From a virus (taxonomy: Duplodnaviria; Caudoviricetes): a stretch of 64,000 nucleotides of DNA. Position numbers and translations under genes: made by a program. Within the stretch, counting starts at the first letter, position 1. Each line of letters begins with the position of its first letter. The notes beneath the pieces were generated by a model, which did no database searches, was not told where the DNA came from, and worked only from the letters and a program-made list of their open reading frames with translations. The stretch covers positions 49,679 to 113,678 of the IMG/VR virus record IMGVR_UViG_3300027782_000046; one strand, given 5' to 3'. Shown here one piece after another: positions 1-33,691 of this stretch.

Positions 1-2
1 CC

Positions 3-6461: not shown

Positions 6462-6470
6462 GAGTAAAAT

Positions 6471-7535
6471 ATGGCGTTAAATTTTAAAGTATTGGGGCAA
6501 TCAACAAGCCTTTCTGGAAATTCAAATATCATTTTATATGGAGTACCTTACTATACAAGTACGGTAGTATCCACATTAAATGTTTGTAATTATGGTTCGG
6601 GTCCTGCAACATTTGATGTTGCATTTAGAAAAGGCGGCGCGAATTTAACAAGCAAGCATTATTTCTCATATAGAACACCAATTGCTGCATATGAATCTAT
6701 AGGTATTACTGCAGGAATTACTTTGGATCAAGCAGATCTTGTAGTAGTATCTGCAAATACCTCAAATGTTAGTTTCAATTTATTTGGTACAGAAAGCTTT
6801 GCTGGCGGCGGATCGGTGTTCCCAACCATGGAATATTTAATTGTTGCAGGTGGTGGCAATGGAGGCGGTGGTAGTACCGCAGGTGGCGGCGGAGGTGGCG
6901 GCTTTAGATTTGGTAGTTTAAATACTCCAATGACAGGAGCCGCTACTTATACAATTACCGTTGGGGCTGGTGGTACAAACGCATCAAGTATTGATGGCGG
7001 ATATCTTGTTTCAAAAGTAGAATCTGCAGGCGGCGGCGCAGCAGGTCAAAATGGAGGCTCGGGTGGCGGTAACGGTGGTCTTGGTAATGTACCAGCAACA
7101 ACTCCTAGACAAGGATATGACGGAGGAATAGCATTTAACGGTTCATCTGGCGGTGGCGGCGGTGCAGGCGCAGCAGGCTCTGGACTTAATGGCGGTGTTG
7201 GAGAATATTCAAGTATAACTGGTACTTCATTGCCTTATTCTGGCGGCGGCGGAGGTTCTTATTCCGGCGGCCAAGGCGGTAACGGCGGTGACGGCGGCGG
7301 TGGCTTAGGTGTTGGTTTTAATTATGGCGGCGCTGGATATTTAGGAAACGGCGTCAACGGAGGAACAAATACTGGAGGCGGTGGAGGTGGTTCCGGTTCT
7401 GGTGGTTCTGGTGTTGTTATAATACGATATTCAAATACATTACCTGCAGCAACTAGTACAGGAAGCCCAACAATAACATCTGCCAACGGATATCAAATAT
7501 ATAAGTTTACATCATCTGGCACATTGACGGTGTAA
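6471..7535 (+). CDS. KVLGQ adaptor-like domain fused to a glycine-rich domain (array member)
   Basis: The N-terminal ~110 aa are homologous to 17211 and 18795 (KVLGQ...FNLFGxE). Then EYLIVAGGG...GGSGVVIIRY...YKFTSSGTLTV. Confidence 0.8.
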   Translation: MALNFKVLGQSTSLSGNSNIILYGVPYYTSTVVSTLNVCNYGSGPATFDVAFRKGGANLTSKHYFSYRTPIAAYESIGITAGITLDQADLVVVSANTSNVSFNLFGTESFAGGGSVFPTMEYLIVAGGGNGGGGSTAGGGGGGGFRFGSLNTPMTGAATYTITVGAGGTNASSIDGGYLVSKVESAGGGAAGQNGGSGGGNGGLGNVPATTPRQGYDGGIAFNGSSGGGGGAGAAGSGLNGGVGEYSSITGTSLPYSGGGGGSYSGGQGGNGGDGGGGLGVGFNYGGAGYLGNGVNGGTNTGGGGGGSGSGGSGVVIIRYSNTLPAATSTGSPTITSANGYQIYKFTSSGTLTV

Positions 7536-7541
7536 ACAATT

Positions 7542-7755
7542 ATGACGTTCTCATTTCAAAATTTTAATTGGAACGGCGGTTTTAGAATTTATACGAATGC
7601 GATATCTTCTGTTGAATATCTGCTTGTTGCTGGCGGTGGATCTGGCGGAGTAAATAGTAATCAGGGCGGCGGTGCCGGTGGTATGCAGGCCAATACTGCT
7701 TCTGTGTCCATAGGTACTATATACATTTAAGAGTTCTGGTACAATAACATTCTAA
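7542..7755 (+). pseudogene. Internally deleted, frameshifted glycine-rich array member
   Basis: It starts like its paralogs (MTFSFQNF...VEYLLVAGGG) and stops at 7730. The family C-terminus YTFKSSGTITF* survives in the +1 frame at 7720-7755. Confidence 0.8.
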
Positions 7756-7761
7756 AATAAT

Positions 7762-8592
7762 ATGACTTTCTCGTTTCAAAATCTTAGTTATACAGGAAAT
7801 TTCACATTTTTACCTGGTCCAATACCACCTCCAATAATTGATTATTTGGTTGTTGCTGGAGGTGGAGGCGGGGGCGGCACTAGCAATGACGGTAACGGCG
7901 GCGGAGGTGGCGCCGGCGGGTTTGTAATGGGGACAACGGCAGTTACTTCAGGATACACATTAAATATTTCAATAGGTGCAGGCGGCGCCGTTGCTGCAAA
8001 CGGTGTTGATTCAACTTTACAATTATCTGGATCATTGACTATTACTTCATTAGGTGGCGGCGGCGGTCAACAATATGGCATTGGTAATAGTGGTGGATCG
8101 GGTGCTGGAACGTCAAGGGTTGCAGATCGCGGCGGCTATGGATTACAACCAGCAAGTGCCAGTGGCGGCTATGGTAACGATGGTGGTGCTTCCAGTAGCG
8201 GATACTATGTTACTGGCGGCGGTGGTGCCGGTGCTGCTGGATCAGGATATCCTGGCGCAGGCGGCGCTGGTAAAGAATGGCCGGTTGGTTCTGGAACATA
8301 CTATGCAGGTGGTGGCGCCAGCTGGTATGCAATGGGTGGGACAGGCGGAGGCGGTAACGGAGCTCTTCAAGTTGGTAATAACACTGGCCAAAACGGCGTA
8401 GCAAATACTGGCGGCGGCGGTAGCGTAGGCACAAATAACGGGGCTGAGGGCCGCGGCGGATCTGGTGTTGTTATCATTCAATATCTTGAGGGATACCCGC
8501 CCGCCGCAAATACAACTGGTTCACCTACAATAACTGTTTCTGGCGGATATAGAACATATAAATTTACAAGTACCGGTACAATAACATTCTAA
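7762..8592 (+). CDS. Glycine-rich domain virion protein (array member, tagged)
   Basis: MTFSFQNL tag; DYLVVAGGG; GGSGVVIIQY; YKFTSTGTITF*. Confidence 0.85.
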   Translation: MTFSFQNLSYTGNFTFLPGPIPPPIIDYLVVAGGGGGGGTSNDGNGGGGGAGGFVMGTTAVTSGYTLNISIGAGGAVAANGVDSTLQLSGSLTITSLGGGGGQQYGIGNSGGSGAGTSRVADRGGYGLQPASASGGYGNDGGASSSGYYVTGGGGAGAAGSGYPGAGGAGKEWPVGSGTYYAGGGASWYAMGGTGGGGNGALQVGNNTGQNGVANTGGGGSVGTNNGAEGRGGSGVVIIQYLEGYPPAANTTGSPTITVSGGYRTYKFTSTGTITF

Positions 8593-8599
8593 AATAATT

Positions 8600-9505
8600 A
8601 TGCCCATTTCTTTTCAAAATATTAACTATCAAGGCAATTTTACTTTTACAACTGGGCCATCACAGGTATCCAGCCCGTCAACTGTAGAATACTTAGTTAT
8701 AGCCGGCGGTGGCGGTGGAGGTGGCGGCACAACTAGTCCCGGCGGGTCGGGCGGCGGCGCCGGCGGTTATAGAACAGCTACTGGATTTTCTGTTACTCCA
8801 GGGGCAAACATAGTAATTACTGTTGGATCTGGCGGTACTGCTGGAACAGGAACATCGCCAATTGCGACTAAAGGAAGTGATTCAATATTTAGTACTATTA
8901 CTTCTACAGGCGGTGGAGCCGGCCAACATTATAATCAAACATTCAATTCTGCAATACATAGTGGTGGCTCCGGCGGCGGCGCATTTTGGAATTTTGGAAC
9001 AGCTGGAACTGGTAATACACCTAGTACAAGCCCAAGTCAAGGAAACGACGGTGGCCCAGCAGGCGGCGGTGGCGCAACTCAGGCAAGTTCTGGCGGCGGA
9101 GGAAGTAGCGCAGTAGGTGGGCAATCTACTGGGTCGGCCGGTGGAGCTGGAGGTAATGGTACTGCATCCTCAATTTCTGGTACTTCCACTACATACGCTG
9201 GCGGCGGTGGCGGCGGTGCAGGCATTAATAGCACGTTAGGTGCCGGTGGTTCTGGAGGCGGCGGCAGCGGTGGGGCCACCTACGGCAATGGATCGGACGG
9301 ATCCACTAATACCGGAGGCGGTGGTGGCGGTGCAGGCGAAGAACAAAATGGTACTCGTACTGGAGGCAATGGTGGTTCGGGTATTGTAATTATACGTTAT
9401 GCAGATTCTTATGCGGCAGCGACAACAACAGGATCTCCTAACGTAACAGTTGCCGGTGGTTATAGAGTATATAAATTTACAAATTCCGGCTCAATAATTT
9501 TCTAA
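8600..9505 (+). CDS. Glycine-rich domain virion protein (array member, tagged)
   Basis: MPISFQNI tag; VEYLVIAGGG; GGSGIVIIRY; YKFTNSGSIIF*. Confidence 0.85.
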   Translation: MPISFQNINYQGNFTFTTGPSQVSSPSTVEYLVIAGGGGGGGGTTSPGGSGGGAGGYRTATGFSVTPGANIVITVGSGGTAGTGTSPIATKGSDSIFSTITSTGGGAGQHYNQTFNSAIHSGGSGGGAFWNFGTAGTGNTPSTSPSQGNDGGPAGGGGATQASSGGGGSSAVGGQSTGSAGGAGGNGTASSISGTSTTYAGGGGGGAGINSTLGAGGSGGGGSGGATYGNGSDGSTNTGGGGGGAGEEQNGTRTGGNGGSGIVIIRYADSYAAATTTGSPNVTVAGGYRVYKFTNSGSIIF

Positions 9506-9506
9506 A

Positions 9507-10427
9507 ATGATTACGTTCAATAATATTTCCTCTTCAGGTAGTTTTAATTTTAATGTTACTACATTAGGGCCAACTGCCCCTTCGTCTGTAGACTATTTGG
9601 TCGTAGCAGGTGGCGGGCCCGGCGGATATGGAATACAAAACTATTCTATTGGTGCAGGTGGCGGCGCAGGTGGACTATTACAAGCAACCGGGGCAGCTAT
9701 AACTCCAAGTGTAACTTATACAATTACTATTGGCGCGGGTGGCGCGCAAAGTTCTTGGACCAATGGATCAAATTCTGTTATTTCAGGATCGGGATTTACA
9801 ACTGTTACAGCTGTTGGCGGCGGAAAAGGAGCAGATTCTCGCAATTATAATGTGCCTGCTGGCAACGGAGGAAGCGGCGGCGGAGGGGCAACTCTTATAG
9901 GCAGTTCAACTGGTAAAGGTATATATCCAGGTTCAACGTATATAGATGCAGCCAGACAAGGTTATGATGGAGGTAATAATGGAACAAATGGATATCCTTA
10001 TCCTACAGCAGGTGGCGGTGGTGCCGGTGGCGATGGATTAAATGGTTCTGGGTCCTCGGGCGGAACGGGCGGCCCTGGTTTATATTCTACAATATCTGGT
10101 TCAAATGTTGCTTACGCTGGCGGCGGTGGTGGATCAGTAGTTCAAGGTTCGGGTTATCTAAGTACCGGCGGTATTGGTGGTGGCGGCCGAGGCGGCTCAC
10201 CCGGCCTTGCTGAGGCAGGTACTATAAATACAGGCGGAGGCGGCGGTGCCGGTGGCGGTACAGTATCTTCTCCTGCAGCTGGTGGGGATGGAGGTTCGGG
10301 TATTATAATTATACGATATGCTGATTCTTATAATGCTGCTTCAAATACAACAGGTTCTCCAAACGTAACAGTGGCGGGTGGTTACCGAATATACAAGTTC
10401 ACAAGTTCTGGTTCAATAACTTTCTAA
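9507..10427 (+). CDS. Glycine-rich domain virion protein (array member, tagged)
   Basis: MITFNNI tag; same conserved blocks as its paralogs. Confidence 0.85.
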   Translation: MITFNNISSSGSFNFNVTTLGPTAPSSVDYLVVAGGGPGGYGIQNYSIGAGGGAGGLLQATGAAITPSVTYTITIGAGGAQSSWTNGSNSVISGSGFTTVTAVGGGKGADSRNYNVPAGNGGSGGGGATLIGSSTGKGIYPGSTYIDAARQGYDGGNNGTNGYPYPTAGGGGAGGDGLNGSGSSGGTGGPGLYSTISGSNVAYAGGGGGSVVQGSGYLSTGGIGGGGRGGSPGLAEAGTINTGGGGGAGGGTVSSPAAGGDGGSGIIIIRYADSYNAASNTTGSPNVTVAGGYRIYKFTSSGSITF

Positions 10428-10445
10428 ATAAAAATGTTTACTTTT
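10390..10445 (+). repeat. 56-bp perfect direct repeat spanning a stop-spacer-start junction (second copy 11314-11369)
   Basis: TATACAAGTTCACAAGTTCTGGTTCAATAACTTTCTAAATAAAAATGTTTACTTTT at both sites. A 46-bp overlapping match also links 11334-11379 with 24278-24323. Confidence 0.9.
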
Positions 10446-11351
10446 AATAATTTTAATGTTACTGGTAATTGGTCTGCAACCAGTGCCGTATATATCGGAG
10501 CACCTACAGCCGTTGAATACTTAGTTGTTGCTGGTGGAGGCGGTGGTGGTGGATCTGCTGGTGGTGGTGGAGGCGCCGGCGGGTATCTTGCAAATACTGG
10601 ATATTCTGTAAATGTTTCTTCAGTTTATACTGTAACCGTGGGAGGTGGTGGAACAGCAGGTGGTGGCGGTTCTCCAGCATACCAAGGCACACAAGGAGGA
10701 AACGGCACCAATTCAGTATTTTCAAATATAACTAGCATTGGTGGCGGTGGCGGTGGCGCATCGGGCCCTGGAGGCGGGACCGTTGGTTTGCGAGTTGGTT
10801 TATCTGGTGGGTCAGGTGGAGGTGGCGCGGGGAATGATCAATCTGTTCAAGCTGCTGCATCTGGCACCGCCGGTCAAGGTAATAATGGTGGATCAAATGG
10901 CACAGTATCCTCCCCGTATCCAGCAGCCGGCGGCGGCGGAGCCGGTGCAGTGGGGGGAAATGGTTCTGGTAGTCAATCTGGTGCGGGAGGCGCAGGATTA
11001 TATTCCACTATTTCTGGAGCAAATGTTGCTTATGCCGGCGGCGGCGGTGGTGGCTCATCAATACAAGGCGCAGTACAAGGCGCTGGCGGTGTTGGCGGTG
11101 GCGGTGCTGGAGGTCAGACAGCTGTAAGTTCAGTAGCAGGTACTACAAATACCGGAGGAGGAGGCGGGGGTGGACAAAATACATCTGGAGCACCTTATAT
11201 TAATGGTGCCACAGGCGGTTCAGGTATCGTTATTATTCGATATGCAGATTCATATACTGCTGCTTCAAATACAACAGGTTCCCCTAATGTAACCGTTTCT
11301 GGCGGTTACCGAGTATACAAGTTCACAAGTTCTGGTTCAATAACTTTCTAA
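10434..11351 (+). CDS. Glycine-rich domain virion protein (array member, tagged)
   Basis: MFTFNNF tag; same conserved blocks. Confidence 0.85.
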   Translation: MFTFNNFNVTGNWSATSAVYIGAPTAVEYLVVAGGGGGGGSAGGGGGAGGYLANTGYSVNVSSVYTVTVGGGGTAGGGGSPAYQGTQGGNGTNSVFSNITSIGGGGGGASGPGGGTVGLRVGLSGGSGGGGAGNDQSVQAAASGTAGQGNNGGSNGTVSSPYPAAGGGGAGAVGGNGSGSQSGAGGAGLYSTISGANVAYAGGGGGGSSIQGAVQGAGGVGGGGAGGQTAVSSVAGTTNTGGGGGGGQNTSGAPYINGATGGSGIVIIRYADSYTAASNTTGSPNVTVSGGYRVYKFTSSGSITF

Positions 11352-11357
11352 ATAAAA

Positions 11358-12233
11358 ATGTTTACTTTTCAAAATTTTAGCACCAATGGGACTTTTTCTG
11401 TTGTAACTGGTTCTATACCGCCTGCAACTGTTGAATATTTAGTTGTTGCTGGTGGAGGCGGTGGCGGTGGTTCTGTTGCTGGTGGTGGAGGTGCTGGTGG
11501 TTTATTAACAGCCTCCAATTTATCTATTTCTCCTAGTATTGTGTATTCAATTAATATTGGCGCAGGAGGAGCAGGCGGCGCAAATAAATATTTTGGATCA
11601 AATGGTTCAAATTCTTATATTAGTGCAAGTGGAAGCAATCTTATTATTGCAGTAGGTGGTGGATACGGTTCGGCAGGTAATGATACCAATATAAATGGTG
11701 GGGCATGGAATGCTGGATCTGGCGGTTCTGGTGGTGGCGGTACAAATATTGTTGGAAGATTGGGAACTCCGGGTTCCGGCATTGCTGGTCAAGGTTATGC
11801 CGGCGGCGCCGGTTATAATAGTGGTTCAGCTGGTTATACTGGTGGTGGAGGCGGTGCAGGTGGCGTGGGAGTAGCTGGAGATGGAACCACTGCAGGCGCC
11901 GGCGGCCCTGGGGTATATTCTACAATATCCGGTTCAAATGTTGCTTACGCAGGTGGCGGCGGTGGCGGACAAAATGGTCTTGGCGGAGTAGGTGGAGGCG
12001 GAGTAGGTGGAGATACTGCACCAACCGCAGGTACTACAAATACAGGTGGCGGCGGCGGTGGTGGAAATGGATATGCGGCGGGCACAGGTCGAGCAGGAGG
12101 CTCTGGTATTATTATCATTCGTTATCCAGATTTTTATACTTCTGCAGCAAATACAACCGGTTCTCCTAATGTAACTGTTTCCGGTGGTTACAAGATATAC
12201 CAATTCACAAGTTCTGGCACAATAACTTTCTAA
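11358..12233 (+). CDS. Glycine-rich domain virion protein (array member, tagged)
   Basis: MFTFQNF tag; same conserved blocks. Confidence 0.85.
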   Translation: MFTFQNFSTNGTFSVVTGSIPPATVEYLVVAGGGGGGGSVAGGGGAGGLLTASNLSISPSIVYSINIGAGGAGGANKYFGSNGSNSYISASGSNLIIAVGGGYGSAGNDTNINGGAWNAGSGGSGGGGTNIVGRLGTPGSGIAGQGYAGGAGYNSGSAGYTGGGGGAGGVGVAGDGTTAGAGGPGVYSTISGSNVAYAGGGGGGQNGLGGVGGGGVGGDTAPTAGTTNTGGGGGGGNGYAAGTGRAGGSGIIIIRYPDFYTSAANTTGSPNVTVSGGYKIYQFTSSGTITF

Positions 12234-12239
12234 ATAAAA

Positions 12240-14255
12240 ATGTTTACTTTACAAAATCTATCTTCTACCGGAAATTTTTATATTACGCAAGTAAATATTC
12301 CGCAGCCATCTGACGTATACTTTAAGTACGTTACAATGTTGTTGCATGGTGACGGAACTAACGGCTCTCAAAATAATACGTTTATAGACTCCAGTACTAA
12401 TGCTTTTACTATTACTCGTAACGGCAATACCACGCAAGGTACGTTTAGTCCATATGATGCTAGCTGGTCTAATTACTTTAATGGCAGTAGCACTTATTTT
12501 ACAGTTCCAACTAATGCAAACTTGCATCTAGAAACTGCTTCAGTTTTTACAGTTGAAGCCTGGATATATCTTACAGGAATTGGTTCATCGCAATCAACTA
12601 TTGTTGGTAATAGAAGCGGTTTAAGCGTAAGTGGATGGGAATTTAGAGTTAGTACTTCACGAACCTTACAATTCTATTATACCGGCAATTCTGGAAGTAC
12701 CACAAATTCTACCGATGTATTAGCATACAATACTTGGTACCATGTTGCTTTAGTAAGAAACTCTGGAACCGTTCAGATTTTTATCAACGGAGCGCTATCC
12801 ATAACTAATAATTCCATTACAAACGGAACATTAAATTCAACTGCGCTTACTATTGGAGCTGAGGGATCTGACACTACATCCATATTTGCAGGATATATTT
12901 CAAATTTAAGAATTGTTAACGGCACGGCATTATATACAGCTGCCTTTACAGTCCCAACATCGCCATTAACTGCAATTACTAATACAGCATTACTCACTTG
13001 TCAATCAAATCAATTCATTGATAATAGTACAAACGCATTTACTATAACAACTACCGGTTTGCCTATAGTGCAAAGTTTTAGTCCGTTTGCTCCAACAACG
13101 GCATACAGTACTAGCGTTATTGGTGGATCTGCATACTTTGATGGTACAGGGGATTATTTGTCAATTCCAAATGCCGCCGCACTTCAATTTGGCACCGGTG
13201 ATTTTACAGCCGAGTATTGGGTATATTTTAATTCAACACCTAGCGGCACCTCTCAAATGCCTTTATCTAAATGGGCATCAAATACCGGTTGGGAACTTTA
13301 TTTTACCAGTAACACTAATAAATTTGCTTTTTATGCACTTGCTGGCACCCCAGCTATACTTGGCACAACATCACCTGTTGGAGGTGTATGGTATCATTTG
13401 GCGGTGTCACGAGCCAGCGGAACTATAAGACTTTTTGTTAATGGAACACAGGAAGGATCATCAGTTACTGGAAATACAAGTGATTTTAGTGATACTAATA
13501 CTTTATTTATTGGCAAAGAAAACAACACCACGGGTTTACCTTTTACCGGTTATGTCTCCAACCTTCGGATAGTCAAAGGCACAGCAGTCTATACAGCTAA
13601 TTTTACGCCTCCTACTGCTCCATTGACTGCAATAGCAAACACATCTTTACTATGTAATTTTACTAATGCGGCAGTTGTTGACAACTCGCAATTAAATAAT
13701 CTAGAGACAGTTGGTACTGTACAAATAAACACAAGTGTTGCAAAATTTGGCGCAGGGTCAATGTATTTTGATGGCAGTAGTTATTTAACCGGAAAAAGCA
13801 GCACAAATTTTAGTTTTACCGGAGATTTCACTATTGAATGTTGGGTTTATTTAACTACGGCCAGTGGAACAAAAACAATCTTTACAAACAGATCATCTTA
13901 TGCTAATCCAACCGGGCTTGCTTGGGTAACGCAATCTGGGTCTGCAGCATTATCAATCTATACAAATAGCGGATTTTCTGCAGCAAGCTCAACTGCTATT
14001 ACAACAAATACATGGACTCATGTTGCTCTTACAAGATCAGGAAGTACTATTACCCAATGGCTAAATGGTGTGAGCGTCGCTAACGTAACAAATAGCAGTT
14101 CTTTTACAGATGCTTTATGTTATATAGGTGCAAATAATTCTGCCGCAGAATATTGGCCAGGTTATATAGACGATTTCCGTATTACAAATGGTATCGCAAG
14201 ATATTCAAATACATTTACTGTACCAACAACAGTTTTCCCTGACATTGGACCATAG
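12240..14255 (+). CDS. Triple LamG/concanavalin A-like lectin domain protein (tagged)
   Basis: Three FT(V/A/I)ExW...W(Y/T)H(V/L)A..R.G....F.NG...GYISNLR/IDDFRIT units; MFTLQNL tag. Confidence 0.85.
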   Translation: MFTLQNLSSTGNFYITQVNIPQPSDVYFKYVTMLLHGDGTNGSQNNTFIDSSTNAFTITRNGNTTQGTFSPYDASWSNYFNGSSTYFTVPTNANLHLETASVFTVEAWIYLTGIGSSQSTIVGNRSGLSVSGWEFRVSTSRTLQFYYTGNSGSTTNSTDVLAYNTWYHVALVRNSGTVQIFINGALSITNNSITNGTLNSTALTIGAEGSDTTSIFAGYISNLRIVNGTALYTAAFTVPTSPLTAITNTALLTCQSNQFIDNSTNAFTITTTGLPIVQSFSPFAPTTAYSTSVIGGSAYFDGTGDYLSIPNAAALQFGTGDFTAEYWVYFNSTPSGTSQMPLSKWASNTGWELYFTSNTNKFAFYALAGTPAILGTTSPVGGVWYHLAVSRASGTIRLFVNGTQEGSSVTGNTSDFSDTNTLFIGKENNTTGLPFTGYVSNLRIVKGTAVYTANFTPPTAPLTAIANTSLLCNFTNAAVVDNSQLNNLETVGTVQINTSVAKFGAGSMYFDGSSYLTGKSSTNFSFTGDFTIECWVYLTTASGTKTIFTNRSSYANPTGLAWVTQSGSAALSIYTNSGFSAASSTAITTNTWTHVALTRSGSTITQWLNGVSVANVTNSSSFTDALCYIGANNSAAEYWPGYIDDFRITNGIARYSNTFTVPTTVFPDIGP

Positions 14256-14256
14256 T

Positions 14257-16284: not shown

Positions 16285-16299
16285 AATGTTTTCTTTTCC

Positions 16300-17205: not shown

Positions 17206-17210
17206 TTTAA

Positions 17211-18395: not shown

Positions 18396-18429
18396 TCGGT
18401 TATCAATTAATTTATCACAAGGAGATAAA

Positions 18430-18783
18430 ATGTCGCATTTTGCAAAAGTAGAAGATGGTATTGTAACACAAGTAATCGTAGTAGAGCAAGACGTTATTAA
18501 TACTGGTTTATTCGGAGACCCATCATCTTGGGTACAAACATCATATAACACATACGGTGGCGAGCATCGTAATGGTGGCACACCTTTGCGTAAAAATTAC
18601 GCAGGTATTGGTTACACTTATGATTCTCAAAGAGACGCATTTATTGCGCCTAAACCATTCGCAAGCTGGGTTCTAGATGAGAACACTTGCCTTTGGAACG
18701 CACCTGTTACTATGCCTACAGAAGGCGGACCATACAGATGGGATGAGGAAACAACTAATTGGGTTGCAATTACTACTGAGTAA
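18430..18783 (+). CDS. Small protein associated with fibre/adhesin modules (possible assembly chaperone)
   Basis: AGGAG RBS, then MSHFAKVEDG...WVQTSYN...RKNYAGIGYTYD..RDAFIAPKP..SW. Start moved from 18337. Function is inferred from position only. Confidence 0.7.
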   Translation: MSHFAKVEDGIVTQVIVVEQDVINTGLFGDPSSWVQTSYNTYGGEHRNGGTPLRKNYAGIGYTYDSQRDAFIAPKPFASWVLDENTCLWNAPVTMPTEGGPYRWDEETTNWVAITTE

Positions 18784-18794
18784 AGAGAAAGCAT

Positions 18795-19127
18795 ATGGCA
18801 ATAACGTATAAAGTTTTGGGGCAAGCATCCCCAGCTGCAACTACAAATACTGCACTGTATACTGTACCGGCATATATGGCTGCGGCCACATCTACGTTAT
18901 CCATATGCAATCAAAATGCAACTGATGCAAGATTTCGTGTAGCGGTACAGGCAGGAAATGCGTCGATACAATTTAAACATTATATCGCATATGATACACT
19001 TTTACCCGCATATGAAACCATTTCATTAACTATAGGAATGACATTGGCAACTACAGATGTGGTTACCGTGTATGCAAATACAACCAATATTAGTTTTAAT
19101 TTATTTGGGTCAGAGATTAATACATGA
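18795..19127 (+). CDS. Stand-alone KVLGQ adaptor-like domain protein
   Basis: MAITYKVLGQ...FNLFGSEI; homologous to the N-termini of 6471 and 17211. Confidence 0.8.
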   Translation: MAITYKVLGQASPAATTNTALYTVPAYMAAATSTLSICNQNATDARFRVAVQAGNASIQFKHYIAYDTLLPAYETISLTIGMTLATTDVVTVYANTTNISFNLFGSEINT

Positions 19128-19954
19128 CCTTAAGACGATTTAGTACTACTAAAGTTAGCCGGTCCCGATCTTTTTCGACGTCCGGCACAACTACTAGTAA
19201 TAACGTAAGTCGTCAGATGAGAATAGATTATTTAATTGTTGCAGGTGGTGGTGGCGGAGGTGGATCTCCGGGTACCGACTCAGACAGAGATGGCGGAGGT
19301 GGTGCTGGCGGTCTTGTTATGGGATCCGTTGCTGCCAGTAAATTTGGAATAGGTACGGCGATATCTATACAAGTTGGAACTGCAGGATCAACATCAACCT
19401 CTCCAACTGCAGGCGGTAATAGTTATTTAGGACCTGTGATTGCATATGGTGGAGGAACTGGTGGATATTTTGGTGCAAATGCTGGTGCTGGCGGTTCTGG
19501 AGGCGGTTCTGGAAGAAACTCAAGTCCTGCAGGAAAAACTCAAATAAGTTATCCGGAATATGGTGGGACTGGATTTGGTAACGCAGGCGGCGGCCAAGGA
19601 GATGGAATATTTGCATCTTCCGCAGGTGGTGGTGGGGGTGCTTTAGGTCCTGGTGGATTTTCTGGTGGCAATTCTGGTGGTTTAGGAATGGTATCAACTA
19701 TTACTGGATCTGCAGTAACATATGCAAGCGGAGGCAGGGCAGGATCATTAATAACATATCCAACAAATACTGGTTCTGGGGGTAGTGTCCAACCATATGG
19801 TGGCACGACTCAACCAACAGATGGTATTGTGATAGTAAGACATTTGGCATCGTACCCTCAAGCAACAACTACTGGTTCTCCAACAATAACAATATATGGT
19901 AATTATATAATTTACACGTTTACGAGTTCTGGCTCAATAACATTCCCGGGATAG
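19124..19954 (+). CDS. Glycine-rich domain virion protein with a basic N-terminus (array member, different leader)
   Basis: ATGA overlap with 18795; MTLRRFSTTK leader; DYLIVAGGG; YTFTSSGSITF. Confidence 0.8.
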   Translation: MTLRRFSTTKVSRSRSFSTSGTTTSNNVSRQMRIDYLIVAGGGGGGGSPGTDSDRDGGGGAGGLVMGSVAASKFGIGTAISIQVGTAGSTSTSPTAGGNSYLGPVIAYGGGTGGYFGANAGAGGSGGGSGRNSSPAGKTQISYPEYGGTGFGNAGGGQGDGIFASSAGGGGGALGPGGFSGGNSGGLGMVSTITGSAVTYASGGRAGSLITYPTNTGSGGSVQPYGGTTQPTDGIVIVRHLASYPQATTTGSPTITIYGNYIIYTFTSSGSITFPG

Positions 19955-19958
19955 AATA

Positions 19959-21674
19959 ATGTCAATCATTTTTAACAATATAAGTATTTTTGGTAATTTA
20001 TCTGTAGTAACACCTTACATACAATTGGCTCCAAGCACTGTTGAATACTTAGTTGTAGCTGGCGGTGGAGGCGGGGGTGGAGGCGTTGTAAACATATCTG
20101 TTGGCTCTGGTGGTGGTGCAGGTGGATACTTAGCTAATACTGGATTTGCGGTTAGTGCATCAACAACATATGCTGTAACGGTAGGAGCAGGAGGCACTGC
20201 AGGGTATTCAACACCAGGCGGTAATGGAAGTCCATCAATATTTTCAAGTATTACATCAACTGGTGGCGGTGGAGGTGTTACTGGAAGTGGTATATATAAT
20301 GGCGTTGCAGGCGGCTCTGGAAGTGGGGCTGCATACACAGGAACACCTGGCACAGGAATTAGCGGACAAGGTTTCGCAGGAGGAAGTGGGGCAACAACTT
20401 CAAATTACGGATCAGGTGGAGGTGGCGGTGCAGGCGGCGTTGGTGGAAATGGAACTACAACAGTTGGAGGTGCTGGAGGTATTGGGGCTACTTCTAGTAT
20501 TAGTGGTTCTTCACTTAATTACGCTGGTGGTGGTGGTGGAGGTATTGGAAATAGTGGCTCTGGAGGCGCCGCATCTTATGGCGGCGGGGCGGGAGCTTTT
20601 GGAGTAGCAACGGCTGCAACTGCTAATACTGGAGGTGGTGGCGGTGGAGGAGGGGGTGGATCATCATCGGCTGGAACCGGCGGCAATGGCGGGTCTGGTG
20701 TTGTAATCATACGTTATCCATCTGATTATAAACTAGCAACATATACAACAGGTTCGCCAGACGTAGTAACGTCTGGCGGAAATGTAAGTTACATATTTAC
20801 ACAATCTGGTTCAATAACTTGGGCTCCTGTTGTTACAGTTGAATACTTAGTTGTTGCTGGTGGTGCTAGTGGCGGTTCTCCATATGGTGGAGGTGGTGGT
20901 GCAGGCGGATTTAGATCATCAGTAGTAGGTTCTACTAGTGGAGGTGGAGCATCCGCGGAAACTGTATTAAGTTTAACTCCGGGTGTTTCTTATACTGTAA
21001 CAATTGGTGCTGGCGGCGCTGCACGAAACAACACATCTACTCCTGGAAATAATGGGTCAGACTCAGTATTTGCCACTATTACATCTATTGGTGGCGGTGG
21101 TGGTGGCTGGCGATATACTAGTGGTCAAGGTTCTAACGGTTCATCCGGCGGTTCTGGAGGAGGTGCTCCAGATAATTATTGGAGTGCTAGTTATACTGGT
21201 GGTGCAGGAACAACAGGTCAAGGATATGCCGGTGCTGGAGCAGCATTTTATACTTACTTAGGTTCGGGCGGCGGCGGCGCCGGTGGTGCCGGAGTTCAGG
21301 CTTCGTCAGGTGGTACGGGTGGTGCTGGTCAAACAAATTCTATAACTGGAACAGCAACATACTATGGTGGTGGTGGTGGTGGTGGACAAAATAATGCTGG
21401 TGGCGCAGGCGGTGCCGGTGGTTCTGGAGGTGGCGGCCGAGGATCAGGCGGAGGTTTGGCTTCTACAAACGGAACTGTTAATACAGGTAGCGGAGGTGGT
21501 GGTGGTGGAGACGGAGGATATGAAGCGTCAGGTGCCGGTGGTTCTGGAATTGTCATTATTCGTTATGCAGATTCAACTGCAGCTGCATCAAACACAACAG
21601 GATCTCCTAACGTAACTGTTACCGGCGGTTATAGAATATATAGATTCTGGCAATCTGGAACAATAACTTTTTAA
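19959..21674 (+). CDS. Tandem two-domain glycine-rich virion protein (tagged)
   Basis: Two VEYLVVAGG...GSG(V/I)VIIRY units joined by SGSITWAPVVT. Confidence 0.85.
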   Translation: MSIIFNNISIFGNLSVVTPYIQLAPSTVEYLVVAGGGGGGGGVVNISVGSGGGAGGYLANTGFAVSASTTYAVTVGAGGTAGYSTPGGNGSPSIFSSITSTGGGGGVTGSGIYNGVAGGSGSGAAYTGTPGTGISGQGFAGGSGATTSNYGSGGGGGAGGVGGNGTTTVGGAGGIGATSSISGSSLNYAGGGGGGIGNSGSGGAASYGGGAGAFGVATAATANTGGGGGGGGGGSSSAGTGGNGGSGVVIIRYPSDYKLATYTTGSPDVVTSGGNVSYIFTQSGSITWAPVVTVEYLVVAGGASGGSPYGGGGGAGGFRSSVVGSTSGGGASAETVLSLTPGVSYTVTIGAGGAARNNTSTPGNNGSDSVFATITSIGGGGGGWRYTSGQGSNGSSGGSGGGAPDNYWSASYTGGAGTTGQGYAGAGAAFYTYLGSGGGGAGGAGVQASSGGTGGAGQTNSITGTATYYGGGGGGGQNNAGGAGGAGGSGGGGRGSGGGLASTNGTVNTGSGGGGGGDGGYEASGAGGSGIVIIRYADSTAAASNTTGSPNVTVTGGYRIYRFWQSGTITF

Positions 21675-22619
21675 ATGTTTACCTTTCAAAATCTTAGTTT
21701 TGCTGGAACTTGGTCTGCCGTAGGATTGCCCAGCGCAGCCACTACTCCGTCAACTATAGATTATTTGGTTGTAGCTGGAGGAGGAGGCGGTCCGGGTGCA
21801 TACTATGGAGGGGGCGGTGGCGCTGGAGGTTTACGTTCTACAGTAACAACAACCGGCGGCGGAGGAAATCTTGAATCTCAGTTATCAGTTGTTGCTAGTA
21901 CAACATATAATATAACTGTAGGCGCAGGCGGAACCGCCGGTGGATCTGGCAACGCTGGTAATAATGGTGCAAATTCATCTATAATTGGAGGAGCAGTCAA
22001 TATAGTATCCTTGGGTGGTGGCGGAGGGCAGTTCTATATAACTGGTGCGCCTGCCGGCCAAGGTGGTTCTGGTGGTGGCGCCGGGTCTGGTTCTACATAT
22101 AGTATTTTGGGCACAGCAAATCAAGGATATAACGGTGGCACAGGCGGAGGTGGCGGTGGTTCTACGGGTGCTGGCTCTGGTGGTGGGGGCGGTGGTGGCG
22201 CTGGAGGCGTTGGTGGCAACGGGGTAAATAATGGATATCCTAGTGGTACTGGTGGCTCAGGCGGTCCAGGAATATACACTACTATTAGCGGAGCAAATGT
22301 TGCATATGGTGGCGGCGGTGGCGGTGCAGGATATGCAAGTGGAGGGTCTCAAACTTATCCAGGCGGTGTAGGTGGCGGCGGTGTAGGTGGAGCCGGCGGT
22401 TCTTCTGCTACTGCAGGTACGGCAAATACTGGGGGAGGCGGAGGCGCCGATGATGGTCATGCATTTACTACAGGTAAAGATGGAGGTTCCGGTATAGTTA
22501 TCATCCGCTATTCTAGTTCTTATAATGCGGCATCTGCTACAACAGGTTCACCAAACGTAACTGTTACTGGTGGTTATAGAATATACCAATTCACGAGTTC
22601 TGGAACAATAACTTTTTAA
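21675..22619 (+). CDS. Glycine-rich domain virion protein (array member, tagged)
   Basis: MFTFQNL tag; same conserved blocks. Confidence 0.85.
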   Translation: MFTFQNLSFAGTWSAVGLPSAATTPSTIDYLVVAGGGGGPGAYYGGGGGAGGLRSTVTTTGGGGNLESQLSVVASTTYNITVGAGGTAGGSGNAGNNGANSSIIGGAVNIVSLGGGGGQFYITGAPAGQGGSGGGAGSGSTYSILGTANQGYNGGTGGGGGGSTGAGSGGGGGGGAGGVGGNGVNNGYPSGTGGSGGPGIYTTISGANVAYGGGGGGAGYASGGSQTYPGGVGGGGVGGAGGSSATAGTANTGGGGGADDGHAFTTGKDGGSGIVIIRYSSSYNAASATTGSPNVTVTGGYRIYQFTSSGTITF

Positions 22620-22624
22620 ATAAA

Positions 22625-24295
22625 ATGGCATTTACAATTCAAAATCTTATTCTCGGCGGCAATATGCAAACATCGCAGCCTGCCCTTGGTGCACCTTCCG
22701 CAGTAGAATACTTAGTTGTTGCTGGTGGCGGTGGCGGTGGATATAATTATGCCGGCGGCGGCGGTGCCGGAGGATATCTTGCAAATGTTGGATATTCAGT
22801 AAATACTACTTCAACGTATACAGTCACTGTCGGCGCTGGCGGAGTTGGAGCAACAAGTGGTGCAAATGGTACAAACGGAAATGCTTCGATATTTGGCGTA
22901 TTAACTGCAAATGGAGGCGGTGGCGGTGCAGGTTTCCAAAATAATGGTTTAGCTGGTGGCTCTGGCGGTGGCGGTGGCGGAAATAACGGTGGGTCTTATA
23001 CCGGAGGTTCTGCTGTATCTGGACAAGGATACGCTGGCGGTTCTGGATATTCAAATGGCGGTGGGGGTGGTGGCGGCGGCGCTGGCGGTGTGGGTAGCAC
23101 AGGCGGCAGCGGCGGCCCTGGCCCAGGCGGCGCCGGAGGCATTGGTCAATACTCTACATTATCTGGTGCAAATGTTGCCTACGCCGGAGGAGGTGGTGGT
23201 GGCGGCAGTTCTGGTGGAACTGCAAGTTACGGTGGCGGCGCAGGAGGCAGCGGAACAGGTGGTTCCGGAACAATTGGCACTACAAATACTGGAGGGGGCG
23301 GCGGCGGTGGCTCTGCTTATAATGGTTCTGGCGGCAATGGCGGTTCCGGCATCGTTATCTTGCGTTACCCATCTGATTATACTGCAGCAATTACCACAAC
23401 TGGTTTGCCAAATGTAAGTGTAACAAGTGGTTATAGAATATACCAATTCAATAGTTCTGGAACAATATCTTGGGCACCGATCTTATTTATGGAATACTTA
23501 GTTGTTGCTGGTGGTGGTGGCGGCGGTAGAGAGAGTTACTCAACCGGAGTAGGTGGCGGTGGAGGTGCTGGCGGCATGCTTACCGGAAATAGTACTGTAA
23601 CTGTTGGAACTACTTTTATTGTTACTGTAGGCGCCGGCGGTTCTGGATATACTGTTAGTGGGGGGACGGGGTCTCCTGGTTACAATGGTGCAAATTCTAA
23701 TATTTCTGGTTCAATTACTGTAACCGCGGTTGGTGGTGGTGGTGGTGGTGGCGGTTCTAGTGGAGGTACAGGTTCTGCCGGTCTAAATGGTGGTTCCGGC
23801 GGTGGTTCCGGCGGTACTGGTGCAGGTGCAGGAATTGCCGGCCAAGGAAATAACGGCGGAACAGGATCTGGAGCCGGTGGTGGCGGTGGTGGCGGTGCTG
23901 GCGGTCTTGGTGGTTCTGGAGCTGGCAGCGCAGGTGGTGCTGGCTTATATTCAACAATAAGCGGAGCAAATGTTGCATATGCTGGCGGTGGCGGTGGAGG
24001 TCTTTATAATGCTCCCGCGGCAGCCGGCGGGGTTGGTGGAGGCGGCAATGGTGGTCTTTATTATGCCGGGCAAGCACCTACAGCAGGTGCTACTAATACC
24101 GGAGGAGGTGGAGGTGGTTCGGGCAATAGTAGTGGCGGAGATAGCACTCCTGCAGCAGGTGGTTCTGGTGTAGTTATTATTCGTTATGCGGACTCAAATG
24201 CAGCAGCAACTGCAACAACTGGTTCGCCAAATGTAACCGTTTCTGGTGGATATAGAGTATACCAATTCACGAGTTCAGGTTCAATAACTTTCTAA
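22625..24295 (+). CDS. Tandem two-domain glycine-rich virion protein (tagged)
   Basis: Two units joined by SGTISWAPILF; MAFTIQNL tag. Confidence 0.85.
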   Translation: MAFTIQNLILGGNMQTSQPALGAPSAVEYLVVAGGGGGGYNYAGGGGAGGYLANVGYSVNTTSTYTVTVGAGGVGATSGANGTNGNASIFGVLTANGGGGGAGFQNNGLAGGSGGGGGGNNGGSYTGGSAVSGQGYAGGSGYSNGGGGGGGGAGGVGSTGGSGGPGPGGAGGIGQYSTLSGANVAYAGGGGGGGSSGGTASYGGGAGGSGTGGSGTIGTTNTGGGGGGGSAYNGSGGNGGSGIVILRYPSDYTAAITTTGLPNVSVTSGYRIYQFNSSGTISWAPILFMEYLVVAGGGGGGRESYSTGVGGGGGAGGMLTGNSTVTVGTTFIVTVGAGGSGYTVSGGTGSPGYNGANSNISGSITVTAVGGGGGGGGSSGGTGSAGLNGGSGGGSGGTGAGAGIAGQGNNGGTGSGAGGGGGGGAGGLGGSGAGSAGGAGLYSTISGANVAYAGGGGGGLYNAPAAAGGVGGGGNGGLYYAGQAPTAGATNTGGGGGGSGNSSGGDSTPAAGGSGVVIIRYADSNAAATATTGSPNVTVSGGYRVYQFTSSGSITF

Positions 24296-24301
24296 ATAAA
24301 A

Positions 24302-25177
24302 ATGTTTACTTTTCAAAATTTTAATGTCAGTGGACCGTTTGCTGTTTATGGAGGCCCTGTTGTTTATGGCGCGCCAAGCACAGTAGAATATTTAGTTGTA
24401 GCAGGTGGAGGATCCGGAGCGGGCTACGCGGGCGGCGGTGGCGCTGGTGGATATAGAACATCAACAAGTTATAGTATTAATACTGCCAATTCTTATACAA
24501 TTACCATAGGAGCAGGAGGCACGGCGGTAACAGACGTTTCTCAGAATGGTAATGATGGCAGTCCTTCAGTATTTGATACAATTACCAGCGCTGGAGGTGG
24601 AGGCGGGGGAGGATATGCAAACTCTGGTCGCCCCGGAGGTTCGGGCGGCGGCGGAGGAATTGGTTCTGGTAATCCGGCAGGCGGAGCTGCAACCCCTGCC
24701 GGCCAAGGAAATGCAGGTGGTGCAGGGGGTAGTTATTCTAATCCTTATCCAAGCGGAGGTGGTGGTGGCGCCGGCGCAGTAGGGGGCGCCGCAGTTGGTA
24801 GCACTCAGTCAGGTGATGGAGGTGCTGGATTATATTCCACTATTTCTGGAGCAAATGTTGCTTATGCCGGCGGTGGTGGCGGCGGTATAGGATATGCCGC
24901 GGCCGGTAAAGGAGCCGCGGGCATTGGTGGTGGCGGCATCGGTGGCAACGGTAGCACAGCCGCCGGATCCGGCACACCAAATACAGGCGGTGGAGGCGGC
25001 GGCCAAGGATATAATAGCGGAAACGGATCGGGCGGCGCCGGCGGATCGGGCGTAGTTATTATTCGTTATGCAGATGTTTATACTGCCGCATCAAATACAA
25101 CTGGCTCGCCAAATGTAACTGTTACTGGCGGATATAGAGTATACCAATTCAATAGTTCTGGTTCAATAACTTTCTAA
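24302..25177 (+). CDS. Glycine-rich domain virion protein (array member, tagged)
   Basis: MFTFQNF tag; same conserved blocks. Confidence 0.85.
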   Translation: MFTFQNFNVSGPFAVYGGPVVYGAPSTVEYLVVAGGGSGAGYAGGGGAGGYRTSTSYSINTANSYTITIGAGGTAVTDVSQNGNDGSPSVFDTITSAGGGGGGGYANSGRPGGSGGGGGIGSGNPAGGAATPAGQGNAGGAGGSYSNPYPSGGGGGAGAVGGAAVGSTQSGDGGAGLYSTISGANVAYAGGGGGGIGYAAAGKGAAGIGGGGIGGNGSTAAGSGTPNTGGGGGGQGYNSGNGSGGAGGSGVVIIRYADVYTAASNTTGSPNVTVTGGYRVYQFNSSGSITF

Positions 25178-25178
25178 T

Positions 25179-26054
25179 ATGATTACTGTCCAAAACGTAA
25201 ATCTTAACGGCAATTTTTCTTTTATTGCTCCACAAATTCTAATTGTCCCCTCAACTGTAGAATATTTGGTTATTGCCGGCGGGGGGGGTGGCGGAAGTGC
25301 AGTTGCCAATAATACTGGTATGGGAGGCGGCGGCGCAGGTGGCTATAGAGCCAATGCCGGATATTCTGTTTCTGCCGGATCAGCAATAACAGTTACGGTC
25401 GGCGCAGGCGGCGCGGCTGGCGGGTATAACGGAAATAACTCCGTTTTTGGATCTATCACATCAACAGGCGGCGGGGGTGGCGGTACTTATTATGGTGCCG
25501 GCGGATACGGAGGAAAAGATGGCGGCTCAGGAGGTGGTGGTTCTGGGTATGGAACAATAACTCCTGGTAGTGGCACTTCTGGGCAAGGAAATTCTGGTGG
25601 CTCTGGAAATACTGGAAACTATGCTGGTGGTGGTGGTGGTGGGGGCGGCGCTAGTGCTGCTGGTAGCGTTGGCCCTACAGAAAAAGGCGGCGCTGGAGGT
25701 AATGGAACATCATCATCCATAAGTGGGTCTGCAACTACTTATGGTGGCGGCGGTGGCGGCGGGAATGGCTCAACAAGCGGCGCGGCCGGCGCTGGCGGTA
25801 CAGGTGGTGGTGGCGCTGGCAGTGGGTCACCAAATGGTTCAACCGCAACTTCAGGAACAACAAATACTGGCGGGGGTGGCGGAGGTGGTTATTACTATTC
25901 TGGTGTGGGCGGCGCAGGTGGCTCTGGTATTGTAATCATTCGTTACGCAGATTCATATACTGCTGCTTCAAATACAACAGGTTCTCCTAATGTAACCGTT
26001 TCTGGTGGTTACAGAGTATACCAATTCACAAGTTCTGGTTCAATTACGTTTTAA
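25179..26054 (+). CDS. Glycine-rich domain virion protein (last array member, tagged)
   Basis: MITVQNV tag; same conserved blocks. Confidence 0.85.
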   Translation: MITVQNVNLNGNFSFIAPQILIVPSTVEYLVIAGGGGGGSAVANNTGMGGGGAGGYRANAGYSVSAGSAITVTVGAGGAAGGYNGNNSVFGSITSTGGGGGGTYYGAGGYGGKDGGSGGGGSGYGTITPGSGTSGQGNSGGSGNTGNYAGGGGGGGGASAAGSVGPTEKGGAGGNGTSSSISGSATTYGGGGGGGNGSTSGAAGAGGTGGGGAGSGSPNGSTATSGTTNTGGGGGGGYYYSGVGGAGGSGIVIIRYADSYTAASNTTGSPNVTVSGGYRVYQFTSSGSITF

Positions 26055-26070
26055 CCTATTTTTAATCGTA

Positions 26071-26078
26071 TATAAATA
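26071..26078 (+). promoter_or_regulatory. T4-type late promoter TATAAATA
   Basis: Exact T4 gp55 consensus in the intergenic gap before fibre 2. Confidence 0.7.
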
Positions 26079-33244: not shown

Positions 33245-33691
33245 ATGTACGCGCAACAAATAGAAAATACTTGGAAAGAATTAATAGGAAATATTGTATT
33301 TTCTCCAACCATTTATCAGACTGCAGAATCATTGACTGATGAACAACGTCAAGAATTCAATGTATATTTAATAGAAGAAGCTGCCATACCTTCTGTATCA
33401 TCTACTCAAAAATTGGGATCGATTGTTTACACACTAAAAGATAATGTGGTTGAAAAGTCTTATACTGTAATTGATAAGACATCTGAAGAAATAGCACAAG
33501 AGACTGCATATAAAGCGTTGCAAGTTCGAGCCGAACGAAGAGTTAAACTTGCGGAATCTGATTGGACTCATCTGACTGATAGCACAGTAAACAAAACAGA
33601 ATGGGCAACATACCGTCAAGCATTACGAGACATTACTACACAATCAGGATTTCCGTTAACAGTTGAATGGCCTACTCCTCCTGGAGCATAA
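33245..33691 (+). CDS. Phage tail (fibre) assembly chaperone
   Basis: C-terminal R..R...LAESDWT......W..YRQALRDI.......V.WP.PP motif. Confidence 0.75.
   Translation: MYAQQIENTWKELIGNIVFSPTIYQTAESLTDEQRQEFNVYLIEEAAIPSVSSTQKLGSIVYTLKDNVVEKSYTVIDKTSEEIAQETAYKALQVRAERRVKLAESDWTHLTDSTVNKTEWATYRQALRDITTQSGFPLTVEWPTPPGA

Follow-up and report, generated by a model that had tools for sequence, protein, structure and literature searches.

We analysed a window of 64 kb, the final part of a 113,678-bp viral contig in IMG/VR (IMGVR_UViG_3300027782_000046; linear class, completeness estimate 63%), and found a co-directional block at positions 6471-26054 with 14 intact glycine-rich open reading frames (ORFs), which together carry 16 units of one protein family. 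On the basis of sequence, a predicted structure and analogy with other phages, we regard these genes as probably encoding virion-borne host-binding heads, a multi-head receptor-binding repertoire, and we give this interpretation a probability of about 0.6. An earlier sequence-only reading had counted 14 intact genes, 16 domains and one collapsed copy in the block, and ORF listing and domain cutting confirmed this count. Its description of a tandem array also stood, with the qualification that the array is broken by two genes for triple Laminin_G_3 (LamG) proteins, a phrog_7759 gene and a stand-alone jelly-roll gene. The family itself is not confined to the block: 14 intact members lie inside, and a 15th lies outside at 34204-35757. 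Because the gp43-type DNA polymerase encoded upstream is approximately 50% identical to Kyanoviridae cyanomyovirus polymerases, the source phage is, judged by sequence, a T4-like freshwater myovirus; the runs that bear its sequence are freshwater and riverine metagenomes, with no RNA run among the runs listed. A psbA-type gene was looked for across the contig and none was found, so the host could not be inferred from psbA.

All 15 intact members scored 34-142 bits against Pfam PF21722 (Gly_rich_2), whose curated whole-protein cut-off is 24.3 bits. At E <= 0.01 no other Pfam family was reported for the members, and in particular none of gp38. The seven array members submitted to PHROGs all matched PHROG 2295 (no assigned function; E 3e-22 to 1e-97), while the distal member at 34204 matched phrog_4474 rather than PHROG 2295. 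Glycine makes up 26-37% of the array members. The Gly_rich_2 family is large, since 5,529 of 8,000 scored candidates from a collection of 5.8 billion proteins matched at E <= 0.001. PF21722 was present in all 120 relatives listed, often together with TIG, He_PIG, fn3 or LamG domains and once with a T7 tail-fibre N-terminal domain. At the DNA level, neither the array nor 36-58 kb matched any of 50,697 phage records in a megablast search. A tblastn search of phages with member 25179-26054 returned one record covering 14% of the query; the low-complexity filter probably masks the glycine runs, and this sparse result is therefore uninformative on rarity.

An AlphaFold2 model of member 25179-26054, built from an alignment of 23 sequences, reached a mean predicted local distance difference test (pLDDT) score of 91.5 and a predicted template modelling (pTM) score of 0.87. 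In the PDB, the sole Foldseek match at E <= 0.001 was a tail-tip chain of phage Bxb1, and the fibre of phage Pam3 followed at E 0.0046. A wide search of 48,161 representative chains, independent of Foldseek, returned only three chains at Z >= 5. The top fold match was the Pam3 fibre (7ypx_A; Z 13.6, root-mean-square deviation (rmsd) 2.5 A, 168 aligned residues, 30% identity), with which the predicted model shares a TNF-like beta-sandwich and a glycine-rich lattice of the Pam3 gp24 type, and the second was the Bxb1 tail tip (9d93_Qa, Z 13.2). Beyond these two, the matches of the wide search fell to Z 4.7 or below and included a springtail polyproline II (PPII) antifreeze protein and the glycine-rich domain of ALK. 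The family profile also detected the Pam3 fibre weakly by sequence (E 0.006), and in a library of predicted viral structures 119 entries matched at E <= 0.001, among them proteins of Pelagibacter phage HTVC025P, Synechococcus phages Bellamy and S-TIM4, and prasinoviruses. A homotrimer prediction with three copies of 25179-26054 scored 0.00, which speaks neither for nor against a trimer.

These matches relate the array proteins to known fibre and tail-tip proteins. In the passages of PMC9608196 on Pam3 gp24 (PDB 7YPX, 7YFW), this protein consists of an N-terminal helical docking domain, a TNF-like domain and a glycine-rich domain whose conserved stem carries a hypervariable distal tip, proposed to be the receptor binder, and a TfaMu-like chaperone, gp25, is required for assembly of the fibre. 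The members in the window resemble gp24 in the beta-sandwich, the lattice of glycine hairpins, the constant stem and the variable tips, and a fibre-assembly chaperone gene is located nearby in both phages. However, Pam3 has a single such gene whereas 15 intact genes are present here, the helical docking and trimerisation domain is absent (the model contains no helix) and a short peptide or a jelly-roll stands in its place, and a conserved C-terminal beta-meander of about 30 residues extends the present members beyond the aligned range. The Bxb1 tail tip (PDB 9D93, chains Qa and Qb) was comparably close (Z 13.2-13.4, rmsd 3.2-3.3 A, 167 residues, 37% identity), although Bxb1 is a siphovirus of an actinobacterium. 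The sections of PMC13243192 on this structure assign the glycine-rich PPII bundles of 9D93 to gp33 (wing brush) and gp29, and such "brush" domains are regarded as likely antireceptors in the relevant parts of PMC13243192 and PMC13243795.

The glycine-lattice fold with constant stem and variable loops that the sequence-only reading had anticipated was therefore found in solved relatives at the host-facing end of the tail, Pam3 gp24 and the Bxb1 tail tip. Its choice of T-even gp38, which binds the gp37 tip through its own N-terminal domain, as the relevant relative was not upheld: the best matches were of the Pam3 gp24 and Bxb1 "brush" type, and gp38 was not among the matches listed. As far as PMC9608196 treats it, gp38 of Salmonella phage S16 (PDB 6F45) is alike in that its glycine-rich motifs build a sandwich of polyglycine type and are separated by variable receptor-binding loops; however, there was no match of sequence family, and 6F45 was absent among the 39 and the 50 fold matches listed, which leaves room for a distant similarity. 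The glycine-rich domains of ALK and LTK also combine a TNF-like sandwich with a lattice of glycine helices, but they aligned with low Z scores (4.3-4.9 over 104-108 residues) and 18-19% identity, a distant resemblance, and they belong to ectodomains of animal receptor kinases. Many different binding heads attached via conserved N-terminal adaptor parts occur in Klebsiella phage PhiK64-1 and in CBA120 and phi92, where the heads are mostly large enzymatic tailspikes of different folds; here, unlike in those phages, one small non-enzymatic fold is multiplied about 17 times.

The 16 units combine a constant frame with loops that differ from copy to copy, as the sequence-only reading had described. 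The eight constant blocks that it named were found in order, in their exact spelling in 5 to 14 of the 16 units and, with one or two positions relaxed, in 14 to 16. When frame columns were defined by an occupancy of >=90% and a top residue of >=60%, they made up 129 of the 362 alignment columns, and the frame residue was glycine in 73 of the 129. Twelve segments separate the blocks, and in 10 of them all 16 units differ. Pairwise amino-acid identity among units was 40-64% (median 52%). The further remark that the loops often carry Tyr, Trp or Phe was not borne out as an enrichment, as these residues accounted for 8.0% of variable positions and 7.0% of the frame; Ala, Ser, Thr and Asn abound at the variable positions, which carry hardly any charge.

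Most of the proteins share a short N-terminal peptide. The pattern M-x-T/S-h-Q/N-N-h-x3-G, in a peptide of about 13 residues, starts 13 ORFs of the whole 113.7-kb contig, all of them inside the array: 11 glycine-rich members and both triple-LamG proteins. Identity of the peptide between LamG and glycine-rich proteins was 0.43, the same value as among all 13 bearers, and the presence of the peptide on the LamG proteins is the only argument for a function of the peptide. The model of 25179-26054 shows no secondary structure over residues 1-25, and its pLDDT is only 60-66 over residues 1-20. The N-terminus of the distal member 34204-35757 (MFSLSGGQISGSF) shows only a loose resemblance to the shared peptide. 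A pairing of LamG with glycine-rich proteins was considered as a general rule and rejected, as only 8 of the 80 loci with LamG have a glycine-rich unit nearby. With the LamG gene at 12240 as an anchor in a scan of metagenomes, the best match was only 53% identical, and an orthologue-based dN/dS analysis was therefore not possible.

Three proteins carry or accompany a 110-residue jelly-roll module instead, those encoded at 6471 and 17211 and, beside the stand-alone module encoded at 18795, that encoded at 19124. The genes 18795-19127 and 19124-19954 overlap by 4 nt and together represent a split version of the architecture of jelly-roll plus glycine-rich unit. AlphaFold2 modelled the 110-residue module with eight strands at a pLDDT of 95.5, and its fold matches were generic (Z 8-10), comprising nucleoplasmin-like cores, a phage cement protein, a viral turret and Ena pilus subunits. 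The N-domain of 6471-7535 matched phrog_1276 and phrog_11338, and the jelly-roll N-domain matched N-terminal parts of PHROGs annotated as tail fibre protein. This family has 2,052 representatives at E <= 0.001, mostly stand-alone proteins of about 109 residues, with some relatives doubled and others forming the N-terminus of longer proteins. In 6 of 10 such longer proteins a Gly_rich_2 domain lies downstream (one at 24.2 bits against the cut-off of 24.3, one with LamG in addition); the remaining four have LamG alone (below the cut-off), RCC1 with TIG, collagen and no match, one each. We propose from these sequence patterns that the N-terminal elements may be address labels that dock different heads at common virion sites.

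The copies themselves are old and conserved at the protein level, because synonymous sites between paralogues are near random: at frame positions where two paralogues have the same residue, the fraction of identical codons was 0.40 as against 0.36 expected from codon usage. This near-randomness also led us to abandon a dN/dS analysis of paralogues. A repeat search detected no long stretches of near-identical DNA, the longest family being 233 nt at 63-75% identity, and DNA identities between copies, over short stretches, are mostly 60-88%. Conservation at the DNA level is highest in the C-terminal tail, with 53% identical codons, and the last 60 nt of the genes are 79% identical versus 51% for the first 45 nt of the next gene. 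One copy, at 7542-7755, has collapsed. Its ORF of 62 residues (7542-7730) encodes the N-terminal peptide, VEYLLVAGGG and the first loops before a stop, while the last 11 residues of the family (YTFKSSGTITF) followed by a stop lie in the +1 frame at 7720-7755; this copy is the product of an internal deletion.

Independent contigs spoke for the reality of the array and revealed variation between strains. Contigs of run X10, about 95-97% identical, bridge 6300-7569, 7722-10109, 17538-20065 and 21537-22573, the junction 16192-17567 is also bridged by contigs of two other studies at about 95-97% identity, and one X10 record contains the first triple-LamG gene and genes 16300 and 17211 at the expected spacing (about 3.1 kb for the first two of these). 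Run X7 gave pieces similar to those of X10. Junctions with sides of 20-25 nt in the contig alignments were set aside, as they arose from glycine-codon repeats and other organisms. Record 26 of X7 joins 14237 directly to 16267 and represents a related natural strain that lacks the second triple-LamG gene; because this join falls at the homologous 3' ends of both LamG genes, loss through unequal recombination is suggested. The strain comparison covered 40 of 815 substitutions and 12 of 20 insertions or deletions (indels) as listed. Twenty-two of the 40 substitutions fell inside units, where frame columns had nine synonymous and no non-synonymous changes and variable columns seven and six, respectively (Fisher p 0.046 for these 22). 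For gene 9507, 9 of the 11 indels listed were in variable columns. The sequence-only reading had asked how substitutions in loops and frame compare, and among the 22 listed changes the non-synonymous ones were in loops only.

Gly_rich_2 arrays also recur in other phages. In a survey of 49 viral loci with our own profile, most had one unit, several had 4-6, and locus L006 had 12 matches in 8 ORFs; Pfam on whole records gave 11 PF21722 matches for L006 and 5 for a complete 63-kb phage. Synechococcus phage Bellamy (MF351863.1, locus L056) has 11 matches over about 20 kb (36.4-55.8 kb), directly 3' of genes annotated as tail fibre, and the genes themselves are annotated "hypothetical protein". A group of phages of about 63 kb (L003, L004, L008 and L032) has a common four-gene array. 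The premise that such proteins are normally single-copy, made for gp38 adhesins, therefore fails for Gly_rich_2. The 16 + 1 units of the window form the largest set among the records examined, and the closest cyanophage by polymerase, SynMITS9220M01, has no PF21722 match. In a quick maximum-likelihood tree with weak support, from which five short units had been dropped beforehand, 10 of the 16 window units formed a window-specific clade (SH-aLRT, the Shimodaira-Hasegawa-like approximate likelihood ratio, 91), 7 of 9 Bellamy units formed their own clade (SH-aLRT 94), and the four-gene arrays of the 63-kb phages resolved into 1:1 orthologous groups. The expansions therefore appear to be independent in different lineages.

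These arrays have N-termini of their own. The L006 array carries a shared N-terminal peptide different from that of the window, and in the 63-kb phages each array position has its own N-terminus, which is conserved between genomes. The genes of about 125 residues before the arrays of the latter phages were considered as jelly-roll homologues, but a profile search did not confirm this; the jelly-roll N-domain was found by profile in 8 of the 49 loci, and L003, L004, L008 and L032 are not among the 8. Bellamy is, like the source phage, a T4-like aquatic myovirus with a phrog_7759-like gene within the set, but its genes (33, 38, 41, 44, 51 and 54) are interspersed with small ORFs, have dissimilar N-termini and no conserved C-terminal tail, and fall in a clade of their own. 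Each of them is followed by several small ORFs (110-180 residues), some annotated as tail fiber, and genes 51 and 54 have a common N-terminal peptide, M.(V/I)FNEFFKKEKP. In the sections of PMC5646251 on the morphology of Bellamy virions, the baseplate is described as bearing branched fibres and the head apex a similar cluster of fibres; as a correlate of the Gly_rich_2 genes, these fibres are suggestive but unproven.

The phrog_7759 protein accompanies the family widely. The search for it covered 51 sources (the window, 49 viral loci and the Bellamy region), and a homologue was present beside or inside the glycine-rich genes in 43 of the 49 loci with a long glycine-rich unit, for example L003, L004, L006, L008, L014, L025, L026, L032, L047 and L056. 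The protein has about 117 residues and starts with MSHFAKVE. It had no Pfam family, its best PDB sequence match (E 0.12) was not meaningful, and in the Atlas only unnamed viral clusters were found for it. We consider it a candidate dedicated chaperone or adaptor. Just 5' of the phrog_7759 gene of L003, a Cys-rich ORF of 220 residues (12489-13151) lies inside the glycine-rich array; none of the ORFs listed for L004, L008 and L032 corresponds to it in position, and it may be a mobile insertion of the endonuclease type.

Table 1. Genes of the glycine-rich array and its surroundings (positions in the window unless marked as contig positions; aa, amino acids).
Feature	Position	Strand	Description
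Giant fibre gene	contig C1:41333-48931, upstream of window		2,532 aa; PHROGs annotated tail fibre protein
Giant fibre protein 1	1-6461	+	Open at 5' end of window; ORF start at contig C1:49264; five Chlorovirus glycoprotein repeats (PF06598)
Member 1	6471-7535	+	Jelly-roll N-domain (about 119 aa) and one Gly_rich_2 unit (6828-7532); PF21722 35.8 bits
Internally deleted remnant	7542-7755	+	Weak PF21722 match, 20 bits at 7599-7706, under cut-off
Five single-unit members	7762-12233	+	7762-8592, 8600-9505, 9507-10427, 10434-11351, 11358-12233; gaps 1-7 nt; each with N-terminal MxTFQNF...G peptide; PF21722 60-85 bits
Triple Laminin_G_3 protein	12240-14255	+	ConA-like lectin fold; shared N-terminal peptide; PF13385 in three stretches, E 2e-64
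Second triple Laminin_G_3 protein	14257-16284	+	Shared N-terminal peptide; likely start is inner Met at 14257
Divergent single-unit member	16300-17205	+	N-terminal peptide; PF21722 38 bits
Jelly-roll member	17211-18395	+	Jelly-roll N-domain and one Gly_rich_2 unit (17568-18392); PF21722 64.7 bits
Small phrog_7759 protein	18430-18783	+	117 aa from inner Met; phrog_7759 E 7e-34
Stand-alone jelly-roll protein	18795-19127	+	110 aa; homologous to N-domains of 6471 and 17211
Divergent single-unit member	19124-19954	+	Without shared peptide; PF21722 39.6 bits
Five members with seven units	19959-26054	+	19959-21674 (two units), 21675-22619, 22625-24295 (two units), 24302-25177, 25179-26054; all with N-terminal peptide; PF21722
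Giant fibre protein 2	26105-31936	+	1943 aa; eight PF06598 repeats
Tail-fibre assembly chaperone-like protein	33245-33691	+	PF16778 E 9e-20; PHROGs annotated "tail fiber assembly"
Distal 15th intact member	34204-35757	+	517 aa; PF21722 34.1 bits at residues 52-285; phrog_4474

The genes and features are listed in Table 1. Intergenic gaps in the array are 0-15 nt, the region of the remnant excepted. Two giant fibres flank the array as had been noted, and a third giant fibre gene upstream of the window has to be added to them. The two flanking fibres are built from tandem repeats of 18 nt (six residues, FAN-type) and 240 nt (80 residues). No Pfam or PHROG match was found for the C-terminal 230 or so residues of the distal member, directly 3' of which lies a gene for a DUF7207 / phrog_407 protein (35766-36152). 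An exact T4-type late-promoter motif (TATAAATA) is located at 26071-26078, 27 nt 5' of the start of giant fibre 2; across the whole window, this motif was seen 7 times versus 9.1 expected, with no excess. Scans for promoters (40 versus 39.1 in shuffles) and terminators (13 versus 16.9 in shuffles) likewise gave no excess. Neither a reverse transcriptase (RVT_1) nor a member of the resolvase/invertase family was matched on the 113.7-kb contig (63% complete), and no near-identical repeat pair exists within the array. This agrees with the absence of a diversity-generating retroelement (DGR) or invertase asserted in the sequence-only reading; the contig showed the features of neither a DGR nor an invertase-switched fibre.

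Taking these results together, the region is probably the host-recognition module of a T4-like freshwater myovirus and encodes paralogous small fibre heads. In each head, according to the predicted structure, glycine-rich hairpins emerge from a TNF-like beta-sandwich and pack together as an extended-strand lattice of polyglycine or PPII type. The glycine stem and the conserved C-terminal beta-meander of 30 residues are constant, while the connecting loops differ in each copy. The heads have no shaft of their own; the N-terminal peptide or jelly-roll would dock them at shared positions on the virion, probably at or close to the three giant repetitive fibres, and the particle would then bear many binding specificities. 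The array probably grows and shrinks as paralogues recombine unequally, their 3' ends being the most conserved DNA. The analysis shows the family membership, fold, context, copy age and true arrangement of these genes and their gene-content and loop variation between natural strains; virion location, receptor binding, the docking role of the N-terminal elements and a chaperone or adaptor role of the phrog_7759 protein are inferred. The antibody-like library of tips proposed in the sequence-only reading keeps its fold, its fibre context and its status as a true array, whereas its kinship to gp38 found no support and its single-copy premise failed for this family.

Several points weigh against receptor-binding heads. 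The phage is known here from its genes alone, as are members of this array type as far as found. Of the differences between strains, 40 of the 815 substitutions and 12 of the 20 indels entered the comparison, the loops are not enriched in aromatic residues, and the variable segments separate all constant blocks, so that they need not all be distal. Even in what PMC9608196 says of Pam3 gp24, the glycine-rich tip is no more than "proposed" to bind the receptor, and with no helical docking domain of the Pam3 type in the predicted model, the attachment of the heads would be left unexplained. The peptide (43% identity) is no better conserved than the units (median 52%), and on the glycine-rich members it could simply reflect common descent. 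In Bellamy, finally, the branched fibres and the Gly_rich_2 genes are linked by co-occurrence only.

Some of the same evidence can be read differently. Assembly might be stochastic, in which case the 13 heads with the same peptide would compete for docking sites and each virion would be a different mosaic. Random loading of some 13 heads, glycine-rich and lectin-type, onto repeated docking sites of the giant fibres would amount to a germline-encoded host-range repertoire for bet-hedging that dispenses with a DGR or invertase, kept diverse by loop substitution, small indels and unequal recombination, and the phrog_7759 protein would be a dedicated partner that assists folding or docking. That 13 proteins with different heads, two of them unrelated LamG proteins, begin with one N-terminal peptide agrees with this idea, as does the lack of a reverse transcriptase or resolvase on the contig, and the co-directional packing with short gaps and no excess of promoters or terminators is consistent with co-expression. 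However, docking sites are not shown to be limiting, three repetitive giant fibres could offer many sites and allow co-display, and paralogues of other phages have position-specific conserved N-termini, which point to fixed places in an ordered complex; we therefore think random loading unlikely. We are equally doubtful that the proteins are general adhesive or decorative virion elements, which would bind weakly to polysaccharide, particles or non-host surfaces or would stabilise fibres. Their relatives are often fused to immunoglobulin-like and fn3 domains, which occur in phage decoration proteins, the loops have the nearly uncharged composition described above, and lectin-type LamG heads carry the same address peptide. 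Yet the solved relatives are located at a tail tip or fibre end and not on capsids, and non-synonymous changes and indels between strains concentrate in the loops, as expected for recognition in an arms race.

Two further explanations fit the data less well. Most copies could be silent cassettes from which one or a few expressed tips acquire loops by gene conversion, and the conserved 3' ends and junctions (79% over the last 60 nt; repeat families D4, D6 and D18) could support recombination. But all 14 copies keep a start codon, full length and an address peptide or N-domain, the frame differences between strains are all synonymous (9 of 9 listed), and the long near-identical tracts expected of recent conversion are missing, so we consider such a reservoir very improbable. 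That the array is an assembly artefact, a chimera of strain variants collapsed or concatenated, is hardly credible. The contig is derived from a metagenome and glycine codon runs recur in it many times, but protein identities of 40-64% and DNA identities of mostly 60-88% over short stretches are far from strain level, the spacing of the first LamG gene and 16300 is as expected, and contigs of two other studies bridge junctions, which disposes of the chimera that the sequence-only reading had named as its possible refutation.

The glycine-rich fold and family were already known, whereas the scale of the expansion, the address peptide held in common with lectin-type heads, the conserved phrog_7759 partner and the recurrence of arrays in aquatic phages are new. 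No published description of Gly_rich_2 arrays was found among the titles listed in literature searches on the family, polyglycine II and tail-fibre paralogues. In aquatic phages, host range is poorly understood and fibre genes mostly bear the annotation "hypothetical". Here, one small head fold, solved in Pam3 and Bxb1, is multiplied to about 17 units in a single genome, and several types of phage, cultured as well as uncultured, have smaller and apparently undescribed arrays of the same family. Should the heads be receptor binders, the question could be approached by experiment in Bellamy, which is in culture and has branched fibres. The shared address peptide would then provide a simple rule for attaching heads, and the array could serve as a natural library, one scaffold combined with different loops, for understanding and re-targeting phage adsorption.

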